64,000 nt of DNA from Pseudomonadota bacterium (lineage in GTDB: Bacteria; Pseudomonadota; Gammaproteobacteria; JAKAQQ01), in NCBI GenBank assembly GCA_027320085.1, contig DAHVLZ010000009.1:288001-352000 (forward strand). Direction: 5' to 3'. Below the pieces are notes generated by a model. That model searched no databases. It saw only the letters and a program-made list of their open reading frames with translations, and was not told the origin of the DNA. Positions 1 through 36,118 of this stretch are shown piece by piece. Positions within the stretch are counted from its first letter, which is position 1. Every line of letters begins with the position of its first letter. Both the position numbers and the translations under genes were made by a program.

Positions 1-429
1 CCACAGACTAGGACGCCCACCATCCGCTCCTACCAAGCACAACCAAGAATCCGTTTGCTTACCTACCCCGCGGGCTCTGCTTTTATTCCACTTAATCAAA
101 AATATAGCGCCTTAGTCGCCGCTCTGCTTGATCCGAACAGCCCCTATAACCTCTTGTACCTTGGGTTTTTCCATAATCTTTTTGACCACCTCCCTCGCTT
201 GCCTCAGGCTCGTTTGGAAACAATTGCCCGCCAGCTTCTCAGAACCCACCCGAAACTCGCTCGCGGATTTCTTCACCGGATCCTCGATCGCCGCTTTGCG
301 GGGAACCCGCGCAGCCGTCTTGACTTCTTTTATCGGCACCTGTTCCGTGATCCCGTCTCCCGACATCTGTACCCCGTCGCCGAGTGGCCGGCCACATCTC
401 AAGACCGGACACCACTGCCTACACCGTGA
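1..429 (+). CDS. C-terminal part (5'-truncated by window edge) of a probable M14-family zinc carboxypeptidase-like protein
   Basis: Frame 1 is open from base 1 to TGA 427-429. PAGSAFIPLNQ..LLDPNSP..LGFFHNLF..FAGNPRSRLDFFY..LYPV resembles the C-terminus of proteobacterial M14 peptidases. The stop overlaps the next start (GTGA). Confidence 0.6.
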   Translation, partial: PQTRTPTIRSYQAQPRIRLLTYPAGSAFIPLNQKYSALVAALLDPNSPYNLLYLGFFHNLFDHLPRLPQARLETIARQLLRTHPKLARGFLHRILDRRFAGNPRSRLDFFYRHLFRDPVSRHLYPVAEWPATSQDRTPLPTP

Positions 430-5466: not shown

Positions 5467-5790
5467 TCAGACCATATCCTTGAGCTTTTTGAGTGCCTGT
5501 ACCTTGACAACGTTTCGGGCCGGCCTCGCCTTAAAGGTTGTAGGCTCGCCAGTAAAGGGATTGACTCCCTTCCGAGCCTTGACCGCCGGCTTATGCACCA
5601 GCTTGATCTTGAGAATTCCGGGCATCACGAACATTCCCGGACCCCGTTTACCGAGACTTTTCTTGATCAACCCCTCAAACGTATCGAAGACGGTACTGAT
5701 CTGCTTACGCGTCAGGTTCGTCTCTTCGGAAATTTTCCGAACGATCTCGCTTTTAGTAAGTGGTTTGGAGGTCTGATTATTGCTAGCCAT
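5467..5790 (-). CDS. HU-family histone-like DNA-binding protein
   Basis: LTKSEIVRKISEETNLTRKQI..ARKGVNPFTGE..FKARPARNVVKV; GAGG RBS before ATG 5790. Confidence 0.92.
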   Translation of the reverse strand: MASNNQTSKPLTKSEIVRKISEETNLTRKQISTVFDTFEGLIKKSLGKRGPGMFVMPGILKIKLVHKPAVKARKGVNPFTGEPTTFKARPARNVVKVQALKKLKDMV

Positions 5791-30432: not shown

Positions 30433-31800
30433 TCAGGTTTCGGGACTTTTTATGGGTAGACGCCGATGGGTACGCTTCCAGATCCAATAGACCGGGATAC
30501 CCATCAGGGTGAGCCCCAAGCTCACTAGCACATCGAAGGGTTTCTGCCATAGAGCACCCAGAAGCACCAGAATGGAAGCCAGGAGAAAAGCCCCCGGCAC
30601 CCAGGGATAGCCCCAAACCCGGTAAGGGCGCTCAAGATGAGGACGCTTCTGGCGGAGCCAGAATAATCCGAGGACAGACAACATCAGAAAAGGCCAGATT
30701 CCAAGCACATAGGCGGCAGCCAAGTCAGCAAAGCTCCGAAATGTGACAAAAATGATGGCCAGCACGGCATCCATGAGAATCGCCACATGGGGGGTATGAA
30801 ACCGGGGATGGGCACGCCCAACATTCCGGAAAAACAGACCGTCCTCGGCCATGGCATAGAACACCCGAGGGTCGGACATGATACTTCCGTTCAGTGACCC
30901 CAAAACGGAAACCATGACCAAGAGGGCAACGGCAACGGTGGCGAATGATCCGCCGAACGATGCCAGTGATGCAACAGCCACGGAAGGATGAGCCGCCACA
31001 CCGGACAGAGACAGAATATGGAGATAACCCCCATTGATGCCGAGGTAGAGTACGAGCACGAGGAGGGTTCCGACAATCAGGGAGAGCGGCAGGTTCCGTT
31101 CCGGCTCACGCACTTCACCTGACAGCGCGGTCAGGTTTTCCCAGCCGTCATAGGCCCAGAGGACTGCAAGAAGCGCCAACATCAATCCACCGAAAACACC
31201 AGGACTTGAAGGGGCGGTCGGAACAGGCGGTAACCGCGGCGCGGTGGATACGGCCGGGTGTACCCAGAACCAGAGCAGGAATCCAAGGCCGAGCAGGGTG
31301 ACCAGCTTGATCGAGCCAAACACATTCTGCACCCGTGCCCCCATTCCGACCGAACGGATCTGGATCAGGGCTACACCGGCAATCAGCAGAGCAGACGCCA
31401 AGTGGCGCGCAGTACTGCCCATTGGCAAAAATGTCGCCAGATACTCTGAAAAGATGAGCGACTGAGCCGCCCAGGAGATCGGATCGGTCAGCAGCCACAT
31501 CCAACCGAAGAGGAAGGCAGGTACCCGGCCGAAGGCTTCCCGAATATAAACGTAAAGGCCTCCAGCATGAGGATAGAGAGCCGCCAATTCCGCGATCGAC
31601 AATGCCCCGCAAAGAGCAATGATGCCTCCCGCAATCCAGACCCCATAGAACAGAAGTGGCGAATCGACATCCAGGGCAACTATCGATGGGACACGGTAGA
31701 GCCCTGTTCCAATCACGATACCCAAAACGACCATGATCCCGGTGAAGGGGCCCAAACGCCTCACTAGGCCGGTTTTTTCAGCTGCCACTTCTCCGTTCAT
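30433..31800 (-). CDS. APC-superfamily amino acid permease (LAT/SteT-like)
   Basis: VIGTGLY, AGGLYVYIREAFG, WAYDGWENL, PRVFYAMAEDG, RPYRVWGYP. Confidence 0.94.
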   Translation of the reverse strand: MNGEVAAEKTGLVRRLGPFTGIMVVLGIVIGTGLYRVPSIVALDVDSPLLFYGVWIAGGIIALCGALSIAELAALYPHAGGLYVYIREAFGRVPAFLFGWMWLLTDPISWAAQSLIFSEYLATFLPMGSTARHLASALLIAGVALIQIRSVGMGARVQNVFGSIKLVTLLGLGFLLWFWVHPAVSTAPRLPPVPTAPSSPGVFGGLMLALLAVLWAYDGWENLTALSGEVREPERNLPLSLIVGTLLVLVLYLGINGGYLHILSLSGVAAHPSVAVASLASFGGSFATVAVALLVMVSVLGSLNGSIMSDPRVFYAMAEDGLFFRNVGRAHPRFHTPHVAILMDAVLAIIFVTFRSFADLAAAYVLGIWPFLMLSVLGLFWLRQKRPHLERPYRVWGYPWVPGAFLLASILVLLGALWQKPFDVLVSLGLTLMGIPVYWIWKRTHRRLPIKSPET

Positions 31801-32792
31801 GATCGGGGATCCTTCCAGTGGTGCTGGGTCTTGGTACTACGCTTCGGTTGGAGCAGGCTGGGTCTTGCGCTTGAGTTTTCAAGATCTCCCTTCCGGATCG
31901 ACTGATGCTGGATCCCACCTCGCGCGTGGGTCACCCACTCAAAGTCGACGCCGGTCCGTTCTGAAAAGCGGGCACTAATCTCGAGTCCCAACTCTTCGCC
32001 CGGAACGAGTTGAAGGGGCTCCAAAACGGGTGCGAAAATCTGTTCCCAATGGGTGGTAGGGGAATCGGGTGCAGTCGAGAGGACGACTCCATCAATCAGG
32101 TCGGCAGTCCACCACATCGCAAACCCAAAGACCCATCCGGTCTGTTCGAACCGCCAATCCACTCGGCACCGTCTTCGGCTCCGGTAGCGGGTACCAAAAT
32201 CAATCCGATCCCAGACGCGCGCAGGTGGGATTCCTGCGAAGTCAGCCGACTGAAAGGTTCGAACATAGAGGTTCTGGCGGCTCAAATGGCTGAGGGGCGT
32301 CAAGTCCAGATCCATACCGTCGGCCCTCCAGGGGTCGAGTTCAGCCCAAAAACGGGCGCTCCCGACCGGCCGGATATACAGGGTCAGCGCATTCGGTATA
32401 CGGATTCCGCCCGGTACCAGAAACCGTCGCGCATCCCACAAAACCTCTCCGATTCCTTCCTCAAGCCCTAAATTGCCCAAGGTCTCGGAAACTACGAGAT
32501 CAACCGGCTCCGGGTCCAGAATCGACCTCGAATCCTCAGCGAAAACCTCGATCCGTGAAAGGCGGTTGCGACGCACAAGGAATTCCGAGAGTTTCGCCAG
32601 CGGAATTTCCCGCTCATAAAGTGTGGTCGAACGCGCCCCCAAGGCATCAGACATGAATCCCAGCCATCCGGTTCCGGAACCCAGGTCCGCCACGCGGGTT
32701 ACACCCGGCTGGATTGCCATTTTCAGGGCCTGGCAGAACGCCTCATTTCGGACACGGTCAGCCGCTAGGCGGCGATGGTAGTCGATCAGCAT
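31797..32792 (-). CDS. SAM-dependent methyltransferase of protein-arginine-methyltransferase (PRMT) type
   Basis: DRVRNEAF, VADLGSGTG, VDLVVSETLGNLGLEE, FLVPGG..IP, STAPDSPTTHWEQ. Confidence 0.85.
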   Translation of the reverse strand: MLIDYHRRLAADRVRNEAFCQALKMAIQPGVTRVADLGSGTGWLGFMSDALGARSTTLYEREIPLAKLSEFLVRRNRLSRIEVFAEDSRSILDPEPVDLVVSETLGNLGLEEGIGEVLWDARRFLVPGGIRIPNALTLYIRPVGSARFWAELDPWRADGMDLDLTPLSHLSRQNLYVRTFQSADFAGIPPARVWDRIDFGTRYRSRRRCRVDWRFEQTGWVFGFAMWWTADLIDGVVLSTAPDSPTTHWEQIFAPVLEPLQLVPGEELGLEISARFSERTGVDFEWVTHARGGIQHQSIRKGDLENSSARPSLLQPKRSTKTQHHWKDPRS

Positions 32793-32823
32793 GAAACGGG
32801 TTCCCCAAGAGCGAGGGGCTTGC

Positions 32824-32851
32824 TTGACAAGAGATTCCGCATCATTATGAT
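32824..32851 (+). promoter_or_regulatory. Near-consensus sigma70 promoter-like sequence
   Basis: TTGACA-16 bp-TATGAT, but the -10 element overlaps the likely ATG of the downstream ORF. Confidence 0.35.
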
Positions 32852-33440
32852 AAAAAGCGGTCAGGAGTGCTCACCCACGCGTAAACGGACCTGGCAGATT
32901 GCAGGCGCGATAATCCTCTCCGGAGGATTAGGTTCCTCGGCGGGTTGTGCCGTGAGTCCATTTCGCGCCTTTCACCCCGAGATTCAATCTGCACGGGTCC
33001 GGGCAAGCCCTATCTGGATCTATCAGGTTACCCTGCCGGGTGTGCTTCGGAACCCCGAGCACCAGCTGGTTGTCCCTGTCGACGTAACCTTCATCAATAC
33101 CAGCCGGGAGCCGATCAACAAAATCCAGTTCGTATATCTCACCTACGACAGTCTCGGGATACTTCGTCGCGATCGCCAGAACAATCTGCCCTTGGCGCTT
33201 GTGTTGCGTGTCCCGGGCCCCTTCGAACCGGGGCATGCCTACGAAGTAGATACCCAGCCCGAAGGACTACCGGGTCTCGGTACCTCATGCATTCGGCTGG
33301 TTTCACTATCGATCCACTGGCCAGATCGTGCCGTCAGAATCCACGGCAAGGCCTTGACCCAAGACCTTGCCCCCATACTGAGGAAGCATTGCGCAGACCT
33401 CGGACCCGCCATTTTTGTCCGTTCACAGGGCGGACGCTAG
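32847..33440 (+). CDS. Hypothetical protein, probable lipoprotein
   Basis: Basic N-terminus, hydrophobic stretch, SAGC lipobox-like motif; beta-rich body (VDVTFINTS..GPFEPG). Confidence 0.6.
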   Translation: MIKSGQECSPTRKRTWQIAGAIILSGGLGSSAGCAVSPFRAFHPEIQSARVRASPIWIYQVTLPGVLRNPEHQLVVPVDVTFINTSREPINKIQFVYLTYDSLGILRRDRQNNLPLALVLRVPGPFEPGHAYEVDTQPEGLPGLGTSCIRLVSLSIHWPDRAVRIHGKALTQDLAPILRKHCADLGPAIFVRSQGGR

Positions 33441-34215: not shown

Positions 34216-34995
34216 ATGTCAATCACTTTGGCCAGTTGGAACGTCAATTCGGTTCGTGCCCGCTTGGAACAAATCAAAGACTGGGTGCATCTGCGTCCGG
34301 TCGACATTTTGGCGCTACAAGAAACCAAGGTAGTCGATGCAGATTTCCCCCGTGAGATTCTAGGATCTTTCGGCTACACCGACATCCTCTCCTCGGGCCA
34401 ACCCTCCTACAATGGGGTCGCACTCCTGAGCCGGCGCCCCCTGATTGGCCCCCTTGAGACCGTGCTGGATCCCCTTCCTCTGGACTGCCGTTACCTCTCC
34501 GCTGAGATCCCTGAGAGTTTTTATCTCATCGACATTTACGCACCGAATGGCGAATCGCTGCAGTCGTCAAAGTTTTCCCACAAGCTCACCTGGTACGAAC
34601 GACTGATCGCTCATCTCGAACACCTGCTCCCCCAACATCCCAAAATTGCCTTGGTCGGAGATTTCAATGTCGCACCCACCGACCTCGATGTCCATGACCC
34701 TGAGGCTTGGCAGGATTCGGTCTTGACCGACAACCGGGCAAGAGACGCCCTCCGAGCTCTCGAGCGTCTGGGTTTCCAGGATGCCTTCCGCCTTCTCTAC
34801 CCGACGGAATCGGTTTTCTCTTGGTGGGATTATCGGGGGGCAGCCCTAAGGCGCAACGAAGGTCTCCGGATTGACCTCATTCTATTGTCAAAAGCTCTCG
34901 TCCCCCATCTTCGAGCGGCGGGAATCGATACAGATATTCGACGTCATGCCCGACCCTCTGATCATGTACCGGTCTGGGCTGAATTCAAACCATGA
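34216..34995 (+). CDS. xth: Exodeoxyribonuclease III
   Basis: SWNVNSVRAR, LQETK, YNGVA, GDFNVAP, SWWDYR, GLRID, SDHVPV. Confidence 0.97.
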   Translation: MSITLASWNVNSVRARLEQIKDWVHLRPVDILALQETKVVDADFPREILGSFGYTDILSSGQPSYNGVALLSRRPLIGPLETVLDPLPLDCRYLSAEIPESFYLIDIYAPNGESLQSSKFSHKLTWYERLIAHLEHLLPQHPKIALVGDFNVAPTDLDVHDPEAWQDSVLTDNRARDALRALERLGFQDAFRLLYPTESVFSWWDYRGAALRRNEGLRIDLILLSKALVPHLRAAGIDTDIRRHARPSDHVPVWAEFKP

Positions 34996-35369
34996 ATACC
35001 CCACGGACTTGGCCGACCGAAATCCGCCTAGATCATAAGCGGACATGCCTGTCGGTCCGGTTCGGTGACGGGCACTCCTTCAGGTTCCCCTGTGATTACC
35101 TGCGTGTCTTCAGCCCCTCAGCGGAAACAGGAGCAGCCATTGGCCGAGACCCCCAGCTTTGGGTCCGGGTTCCCGCGACCCTGCGCATCCGTTCGATTGA
35201 GCCAGTAGGCCGTTATGCGGTTCGCATCGTCTTCGAGGATGGCCATGACAGCGGGATCTATGCTTACGATTTTCTACGCGAGCTTGGCGAAACCCAAGTC
35301 GAACGCTGGTCCCGTTACCTGTACTATCTTGAATCGGTGCAAACCTCTTCGCGTGAGGGTTCAACATGA
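34992..35369 (+). CDS. DUF971 (gamma-butyrobetaine hydroxylase-like N-terminal) protein
   Basis: YLRVFSPSAE, IEPVGRYAVRIVFEDGHDSGIY. Confidence 0.9.
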   Translation: MNTPRTWPTEIRLDHKRTCLSVRFGDGHSFRFPCDYLRVFSPSAETGAAIGRDPQLWVRVPATLRIRSIEPVGRYAVRIVFEDGHDSGIYAYDFLRELGETQVERWSRYLYYLESVQTSSREGST

Positions 35370-36118
35370 ACTCAGGCGATCCCTCGACCCATTTTGGATT
35401 TGAAACAGTCACCCCAGAAGAAAAGACCCGCCGGGTGCGGCAGGTCTTTGAATCCGTGGCCCCCCGCTATGATGTCATGAACGATCTCATGTCCATCGGC
35501 CTGCACCGGGTCTGGAAATCGTTTCTCGGGGCCATAAGTCCGAGCTATCCAGCTCCACGGATCCTGGACTTGGCATCCGGAACAGGCGACCTCGTGCGAG
35601 TTTTGCGTCATCGCTATGGACCTAGCGTGGAGCTTATTGCCTCCGACATCAATCCTTTCATGCTGGCTCAAGGCCAGGAACGGAAGCATGCTTCCACCCG
35701 ATCCCTAGCCAGCCTCTATGTGCAAGCCGATGCCGAGCAGCTACCATTCCCCTCAGGCTACTTCGACCTCGTTACGCTGGCTTTTGGCCTTCGCAACATG
35801 ACTCATCCCGATAAGGCGCTCACCGAAATCCATCGCGTTCTCAGGGTCGGCGGGGTGACCCTCATTCTTGAATTTTCCCACCCGCGGGGCCGGGTTTTCC
35901 AGCGACTCTACGACACGTACTCCTTCGAGATCTTGCCACGTCTGGGCCGCTGGATCGCCCAAGACGAAGCCAGTTATCGTTATCTTGCTGAATCCATTCG
36001 CCGCCATCCGGACCAGGAGACTCTAAAACTCATGATGCAGGAATCCGGACTGGCCCGTGTGGAGTACTTCAACCTGTGTCGTGGAATTGTGGCACTGCAT
36101 CGGGGCTACCATCTGTGA
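35366..36118 (+). CDS. ubiE: Ubiquinone/menaquinone C-methyltransferase
   Basis: THFGF, YDVMNDLMS, LDLASGTGD, FGLRNMT, SYRYLAESIR. Confidence 0.97.
   Translation: MNSGDPSTHFGFETVTPEEKTRRVRQVFESVAPRYDVMNDLMSIGLHRVWKSFLGAISPSYPAPRILDLASGTGDLVRVLRHRYGPSVELIASDINPFMLAQGQERKHASTRSLASLYVQADAEQLPFPSGYFDLVTLAFGLRNMTHPDKALTEIHRVLRVGGVTLILEFSHPRGRVFQRLYDTYSFEILPRLGRWIAQDEASYRYLAESIRRHPDQETLKLMMQESGLARVEYFNLCRGIVALHRGYHL

Follow-up and report, generated by a model that had tools for sequence, protein, structure and literature searches.

The window analysed here is a stretch of 64,000 nucleotides from a Pseudomonadota bacterium (Gammaproteobacteria; JAKAQQ01), taken from GenBank assembly GCA_027320085.1 (contig DAHVLZ010000009.1, positions 288,001 to 352,000). 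Its subject is an open reading frame (ORF) on the reverse strand (31797..32792) that begins with ATG after a weak purine run (GGGGAA) and encodes a methyltransferase of 331 amino acids, which almost certainly belongs to the fold family of the protein arginine methyltransferases (PRMTs). The TGA stop codon of the methyltransferase shares four nucleotides (ATGA) with the ATG of a downstream amino-acid permease gene. A first-pass annotation, made from the sequence alone, had described the protein as a PRMT core with a double-E loop, a THW loop, a beta-barrel and an arm, and this description was supported by Pfam, phmmer, the AlphaFold2 model, Foldseek and complex prediction. All of the motif strings that it named are present in the translation and in the order that it gave; the double-E glutamates (E103 and E112) are indeed 9 residues apart, and coordinate arithmetic places THW at 32046-32054 as claimed. 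The features of the locus are collected in Table 1.

Table 1. Features of the PRMT-type methyltransferase and the adjacent permease gene, in window coordinates (SAM, S-adenosylmethionine; pI, isoelectric point).
Feature	Residues	Coordinates	Strand	Basis or remark
PRMT-type methyltransferase ORF		31797..32792, including stop codon	-	Pfam, phmmer, AlphaFold2 model, Foldseek
N-terminal helix HRRLAADRVRNEAF	6-19	32736..32777	-	Alignment; pairs with HEEMIADRVRTDAY of PRMT6
Motif I VADLGSGTG, SAM-binding glycine loop	34-42	32667..32693	-	phmmer, alignment
Post-I LYE	58-60	32613..32621	-	E60 pairs with the post-I glutamate of PRMT6 and CARM1
Double-E loop VDLVVSETLGNLGLEE	97-112	32457..32504	-	E103, E112 and an extra E111 invariant
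Motif III RFLVPGGIRIP	123-133			Found in translation
Helical arm in beta-barrel, including WRADGMDLDL (155-164)	~144-175	32268..32363	-	AlphaFold2; predicted dimer interface
C-terminal beta-barrel domain	~135-305	31878..32390	-	Pfam PRMT_C and PRMT5_C, AlphaFold2, Foldseek
THW loop LSTAPDSPTTHWEQ (THW, 247-249, at 32046-32054)	238-251	32040..32081	-	Alignment
Basic C-terminal tail, pI 11.7	306-331	31800..31877	-	Low-confidence modelling
APC-superfamily amino-acid permease	455 amino acids	30433..31800	-	Family models; overlap with methyltransferase stop

Family membership was assessed with domain models and by searches against solved structures. Two Pfam models of the PRMT C-terminal domain matched above their cut-offs over residues 137-290 (PRMT5_C, 38.0 bits with a cut-off of 30.3; PRMT_C, 32.4 bits with a cut-off of 27), Pfam MTS spanned the Rossmann part, and no NCBIfam model fitted the methyltransferase. 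A phmmer search of the PDB gave 70 matches at E ≤ 0.01, with CARM1 the best (E 1.7e-15, residues 33-269) and PRMT6 aligned over residues 4-273. Among the 60 best of these matches, all carried PRMT-type names except the unnamed MGC151858 and Hsl7, which we take to be the yeast PRMT5 homologue. A family profile built from 38 aligned members (311 positions) gave 71 PDB matches at E ≤ 1e-5, and the 60 best again all bore PRMT-type names except MGC151858. PRMT6 headed this search (E 9.5e-43, 149.6 bits, positions 4-285 of 311), PRMT8, CARM1 (PRMT4), PRMT2, PRMT1 and PRMT3 scored 118-136 bits, and PRMT9, PRMT7 and PRMT5 scored 114, 104 and 90 bits, respectively. Judged by profile score, the methyltransferase is therefore nearest to the type I PRMTs, whose 118-150 bits were the top scores of any solved proteins.

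In the alignment with PRMT6, the HEEM..D..R stretch, the loop glutamates and THWKQ of that enzyme pair with HR..D..R, with E103 and E112, and with THWEQ of the bacterial protein; aligned to CARM1 and PRMT6 together, the protein has a GxGxG motif I with an acidic post-I position, the double-E loop and the THW loop. Across the 38-sequence alignment, residues H6, R7, D12, R15, D36, G38, G40, G42, E103, E111, E112, T247, H248, W249 and Q251 are invariant, and E60 is kept in at least 90% of the sequences. The invariants specific to the family (R7, N107, E111, W155, D163, N174 and Y176) fall in the N-terminal helix, the double-E loop and the arm, and the C-terminal tail can be aligned only in the 3 closest of the 37 relatives.

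Type I PRMTs are defined by a YFxxY helix, which covers SAM in these enzymes, and by two active-site methionines. Neither hallmark was found in the alignment: the YFxxY helix is missing, and the methionine positions of PRMT6 are occupied by L9 and I114, for which reason no product type was assigned. Absence of the helix had been noted in the first reading of the sequence, and the alignment agrees, in that five residues precede the HR motif in the protein and in each of its 37 aligned relatives. The 37 relatives share the start M-x-I-(D/E)-(Y/F)-H-R, and the upstream open frame of the methyltransferase would add only 26 codons (357 instead of 331 amino acids); this common start and short upstream frame indicate that the lack of YFxxY is real and not an artefact of start-codon choice.

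An AlphaFold2 model computed from the 38-sequence alignment (mean predicted local distance difference test score, pLDDT, 91.4; predicted template modelling score 0.87) consists of a Rossmann half and a strand-rich half, with strands across residues 125-298 and short helices at 147-151 and 165-171. Foldseek against the PDB ranked CARM1 and PRMT6 chains first (E ~1e-26; template modelling scores, TM, of 0.72-0.81 over ~320-329 columns; 21-24% identity), and the model aligned to CARM1 at E 3.5e-26 with a TM of 0.79 over ~326 columns. The beta-barrel on which the first-pass annotation had staked its claim is thus present in the model, where it superposes on CARM1 and PRMT6. When two copies were folded together, the score was 0.68, and the highest of 3 controls scored 0.09. 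Of the calibration proteins, 20 of the 30 with solved structures as one-chain pairs attained the mark, as did 1 of the 23 with solved structures as single chains. The runs shared at least 82% of their contacts, and the partner pLDDT was at least 86. In the predicted interface, arm residues 151-176 of one copy touch helices 1-11, 41-50 and 62-76 of its partner, a layout that we take to be the head-to-tail PRMT arrangement, and a PRMT-like head-to-tail homodimer is accordingly what the modelling predicts.

Compared with the known type I enzymes (PRMT6, PRMT8, CARM1/PRMT4, PRMT2, PRMT1 and PRMT3), the methyltransferase shares the Rossmann domain and the beta-barrel with its helical arm, motif I, the post-I glutamate, the double-E loop with glutamates 9 apart, the THW loop and the predicted head-to-tail dimer. 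It differs from them in being only ~22-24% identical, in lacking both the YFxxY helix and an N-terminal targeting domain, and in having a bacterial host. Relative to PRMT6 in particular, the family has HR(T/R)(L/M) for HEEM, SETLGN for SEWMGY and EE(G/N)(I/V) for HESM. PRMT7 (type III) and PRMT5 (type II) share the fold and the loops, and PRMT5_C is the best-scoring Pfam barrel model, although both enzymes scored lower in the profile search. In its SExLG(N/S/T) form, the double-E loop is, as we understand it, similar to that of PRMT7 and PRMT5. PRMT5 carries an N-terminal TIM-barrel domain and mammalian PRMT7 a tandem module, neither of which occurs in the bacterial methyltransferase.

The rarity and novelty implied by the first reading did not survive the searches: the family is large, extends over several bacterial phyla, has many members that already bear the JGI name 'protein arginine N-methyltransferase 1', and was touched on in print in 2012. 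A word-indexed protein search gave 410 relatives at E ≤ 0.001, the best 120 of which are 288-332 amino acids long. An exhaustive profile search of representative clusters gave 14529, 8288 and 2259 clusters at E ≤ 0.001, 1e-10 and 1e-30, respectively, the last figure probably including eukaryotic PRMTs. At least 290 stretches in species-representative bacterial genomes encode a relative; the best 80 of these come from metagenome-assembled genomes (MAGs) of Gammaproteobacteria, Hyphomicrobium/Hyphomicrobiaceae, Alphaproteobacteria, Peregrinibacteria/Peribacteria and other Proteobacteria, and from the complete genome of gamma proteobacterium HdN1. Among bacterial clusters of the ESM Atlas, Pseudomonadota, Acidobacteriota, Actinomycetota and Myxococcota were the commonest phyla, and in those clusters that list PRMT_C the domain was assigned to 66-92% of members.

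The distribution of the bacterial PRMT-like family is patchy. All 9 other genomes of the taxonomic family to which the window belongs carry the gene, which speaks for long-term retention, and none of 31 genomes sampled from other families of the same class does. In an even sample of the phylum, 37 of 401 genomes matched at E ≤ 1e-10, and 16 of the 37 (G000 included) aligned over 255 or more of the 311 positions in the profile. A tblastn search of plasmids and phages returned no match to the methyltransferase. Pfam PRMT_C matched none of 14 well-known control genomes, which is probably why PRMTs are thought of as eukaryotic.

A passage in Aravind et al. 2012 (PMC3417536) derives the eukaryotic PRMTs from a bacterial radiation, places their closest bacterial sister groups in antibiotic-like operons, mentions bacterial PRMT domains inside non-ribosomal peptide synthetase (NRPS) proteins, and refers to the authors' own 2011 review (Aravind, Abhiman and Iyer) for bacterial PRMT relatives. 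On the strength of that passage, bacterial PRMT homologues were already in print in 2011-12. Phrase searches of the literature found no paper on a characterised bacterial or prokaryotic PRMT, and no paper characterising the stand-alone family of ~310 amino acids. The methyltransferase is a further member of a large, already noticed and routinely misnamed bacterial family.

The stand-alone architecture proposed in the first-pass annotation was borne out by a search among longer proteins, which gave only 10 matches, all distant (≤55 bits); 8 of them are NRPS-type proteins of 1826-1891 amino acids that carry PF05185 (PRMT5). In the NRPS proteins P0272-P0280 (~1830-1890 amino acids), the PRMT5-type PF05185 domain lies between the adenylation and carrier domains, beside a second methyltransferase domain. 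PRMT_C was found in 53 of the 57 relatives of at least 335 amino acids. C-terminal fusions were seen to Rnk_N with GreA/GreB-C (P0244, 434 amino acids, named as a hypothetical protein from a Myxococcales MAG), to NUDIX (P0220, 430 amino acids) and to TPR (P0163, 408 amino acids), and a SEC-C motif occurred on 1 of the 57; every fusion type was seen once. Of 149 representatives (relatives P0121-P0269), 32 are 360-399 amino acids long, and among those that were checked the additional ~80 residues sit at the C-terminus and match no Pfam family, so that they may form an undescribed domain on the bacterial PRMT core.

Downstream of the methyltransferase, the permease is nearest to an L-type amino-acid transporter model, to which it scored 211 bits, below the cut-off of 701.8, and it is followed by PhzF-like and UDG genes. 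Upstream, on the other strand, lies an ORF of 221 amino acids (32775-33440, +), and farther out come Skp/OmpH, exonuclease III, a GBBH-like_N protein and UbiE. The 221-residue ORF is divergent from the methyltransferase, matched neither Pfam nor NCBIfam, and shows conservation in kin that sets in at about residue 33-58. Read from its first ATG, it overlaps the start of the methyltransferase by 18 nucleotides, and a strong sigma-70-like site (TTGACA-16-TATGAT, 11/12) at 32824-32851 suggests that translation begins later; judged by eye, the ORF contains a signal- or lipobox-like stretch (...LSGGLGSSAGC) and encodes a putative lipoprotein. The GBBH-like_N (DUF971-type) ORF (34992-36118, +) shares 4 nucleotides with each of its neighbours, exonuclease III on the upstream side and UbiE/MenG on the downstream side, an arrangement suggestive of a tightly packed operon. 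Nothing relevant came from Rfam and tRNA scans of the window. An HU/IHF-family gene (5470-5760, -; Pfam Bac_DNA_binding, 61 bits; one of four in the genome), presumably the 'HU-like protein' offered as a substrate candidate in the first-pass annotation, was rejected as a contextual clue; it and the methyltransferase are ~26 kb apart.

Four kin loci (L003, L004, L083 and L084) have the methyltransferase and the permease in the same co-oriented pair. In L082 and L085, from a third genus of the window's taxonomic family, the methyltransferase is 42% identical and an amino-acid permease is adjacent but convergent, the 3' ends of the two genes overlapping by ~80 nucleotides. There (L082:3953-8306 and L085), the PRMT-like gene follows an ABC transporter pair with a 4-nucleotide overlap, the pair consisting of an ABC_tran ATPase and an FtsX/MacB-like permease of 826 amino acids.

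For 74 of the 80 related loci, conserved neighbours were sought by clustering the surrounding ORFs and by running Pfam on the 135 flanking ORFs; the remaining 6 loci were left out because no ORF had been picked over the match. The greedy ORF picker took an antisense ORF at 17 loci, so the counts are rough. The commonest neighbour was an RNA methylase with SpoU and MRM3-like domains (11 of 135). This SpoU-type 2'-O-methylase, with its MRM3-like substrate-binding domain, stands immediately upstream of the PRMT-like gene and in the same orientation (L033:4340-5932 and 10 further loci), seemingly for the most part in Hyphomicrobium/Hyphomicrobiaceae MAGs, to judge from the loci named in the cluster. 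PHB depolymerase, NnrU and GMC oxidoreductase were each found 4 times and an amino-acid permease twice, both times in kin (L003 and L004). No arginine-metabolism, NRPS, dioxygenase or amine-oxidase family was among the 25 commonest flank families.

We favour, with modest confidence, the reading that the gene encodes a catalytically intact, stand-alone, cytoplasmic enzyme of the bacterial PRMT branch, which acts as a head-to-tail homodimer and methylates a terminal guanidino nitrogen, with peptidyl arginine as the best guess for its substrate. The Rossmann domain and beta-barrel would work as a head-to-tail dimer through the arm; SAM would be held by motif I, E60 and R15; the guanidinium group of arginine would be clamped by E103 and E112 beneath the THW loop (H248 and W249); and the methyl group would then pass to a terminal guanidino nitrogen, presumably of peptidyl arginine in bacterial proteins. 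These SAM- and guanidinium-binding roles are known for the corresponding residues from established PRMT structures. Whether the product is mono-, asymmetrically or symmetrically dimethylated cannot be read from sequence. Three observations point weakly to a protein substrate: the methyltransferase core is acidic (pI 5.5); longer relatives show single fusions to GreA/GreB-C with Rnk_N, to TPR or to SEC-C; and the flank families described above include neither arginine metabolism nor NRPS among the commonest 25 and a permease only twice. A wider and more tentative proposal, on which we are somewhat less than evenly inclined, is that the proteins of ~310 amino acids are true bacterial writers of protein methylarginine and represent the free-living bacterial counterpart, possibly even the ancestral form, of the eukaryotic type I PRMTs, a minimal dimeric core without the YFxxY lid.

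Several points weigh against this reading. At the active site, the family departs invariantly from the eukaryotic PRMTs (R7 for Glu, N107 for Tyr, and E111), and the second type I methionine is replaced by I/V throughout. The dimer prediction may reflect only likeness to PRMT dimers that have already been solved, and so does not amount to independent proof. No partner is conserved family-wide among the 135 flanking ORFs of the 74 loci, and each kind of fusion to a protein-interaction module was seen in a single one of the 57 longer relatives. RG/RGG-rich substrate candidates from a scan of the genome's raw ORFs were dropped because they looked like out-of-frame Arg/Gly-rich ORFs. Finally, translational coupling to an amino-acid permease in this lineage would fit a small-molecule substrate better.

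The last of these points makes free L-arginine, or another small guanidino compound, a live though rather unlikely alternative substrate, in which case the coupled permease, found only in this lineage, would move the substrate or the product. Beyond the ATGA overlap, the co-oriented pair in the four kin loci, the permease that is still adjacent in the third genus (L082 and L085) and the assignment of that permease to the APC superfamily (nearest the L-type model, at 211 bits and below 701.8) are all consistent with such a role, and the invariant R7 and E111 near the active site could bind the alpha-carboxylate and alpha-amino group of the free amino acid. There is also bacterial precedent, which we compared by description only: SznE/StzE of streptozotocin biosynthesis, in the passages that describe them (PMC11705231, PMC12637814, PMC11429834), likewise catalyse SAM-dependent methylation of an arginine guanidino nitrogen, but act on free L-arginine within a biosynthetic cluster and make N-omega-methyl-L-arginine. 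Set against this, the permease is a neighbour in one taxonomic family of kin only (it occurs twice among the 135 flanking ORFs, both times in kin), the convergent arrangement in genus g2 makes co-transcription impossible there, and no arginine-pathway or biosynthetic-cluster family appears among the 25 commonest flank families. A bolder variant would have the enzyme of this lineage make free methylarginine, which the coupled permease would export as an antimetabolite or signal.

A role as a tailoring enzyme that methylates a peptide natural product, after the operon- and NRPS-located PRMT relatives of Aravind et al., we consider improbable. The ~1870-residue NRPS proteins with a PRMT5-type domain that turned up among the longer proteins speak for a link of this kind, and the passage cited above sets those relatives in the same bacterial PRMT radiation; the NRPS matches are distant, however (≤55 bits, 24-37% identity), and unlike these embedded domains the family of the window is stand-alone and lies in housekeeping-type neighbourhoods. 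The neighbours in the window itself are the permease, the putative lipoprotein, Skp/OmpH, exonuclease III, UDG and PhzF, and the 25 commonest families among the 135 flanking ORFs include no NRPS, dioxygenase or amine oxidase.

The automatic names would make the protein a PrmA-type methyltransferase, acting on lysine and the N-terminus of ribosomal protein L11. The name '50S ribosomal protein L11 methyltransferase' is attached to one relative at NCBI, most ESM Atlas clusters of relatives are auto-named L11 methyltransferase, and relatives do match Pfam PrmA, but in the methyltransferase core. PrmA and the window protein share a class I SAM methyltransferase core, which is the source of these names. 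PrmA methylates lysine and the N-terminus, not arginine, and is not known to have a beta-barrel, double-E loop or THW loop. In the window protein, the Pfam PrmA model reached only 12.7 bits against a cut-off of 22 (E 0.091) and covered positions 153-237 of 296, within the core; the NCBIfam L11 methyltransferase equivalog PRK00517 scored 12.5 bits against 188; and full-length PrmA models went unmatched. Its C-terminal half forms a beta-barrel of the PRMT type that carries a THW loop, and it has no N-terminal L11-binding domain. Elsewhere in the window's genome, Pfam PrmA gave 4 partial core matches, none of them at the methyltransferase locus. We therefore regard a PrmA function as very improbable, in line with the first-pass annotation, which had set the protein apart from PrmA and had foreseen that pipelines could mislabel it, as the names at NCBI and in the Atlas confirm.

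Least probable of all is a eukaryotic gene brought into the bacterial bin by contamination or very recent transfer, since, although the best characterised relatives are all eukaryotic, the coding sequence overlaps a bacterial permease gene on a 480 kb contig, the contamination of the genome is 0, the gene is present in 9 of 9 same-family genomes and in at least 290 bacterial species genomes, and bacterial relatives score 250-760 bits, as against 60 bits for the best eukaryotic structure.

The significance of these results attaches to the bacterial PRMT-like family as a whole and is not special to the window. In a re-analysis of 48 strains (bioRxiv 10.1101/2023.06.29.546327), about a quarter of the identified bacterial proteins were reported to be methylated. 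If these proteins are true writers of protein methylarginine, systematic L11 methyltransferase labels would have hidden a whole bacterial arginine-methylation system. A compact and confidently modelled bacterial PRMT core, present in named taxa (Hyphomicrobium, gamma proteobacterium HdN1), would be a tractable system for asking what bacteria do with arginine-methylation chemistry, for rooting the eukaryotic PRMT tree and for correcting a widespread mis-annotation.

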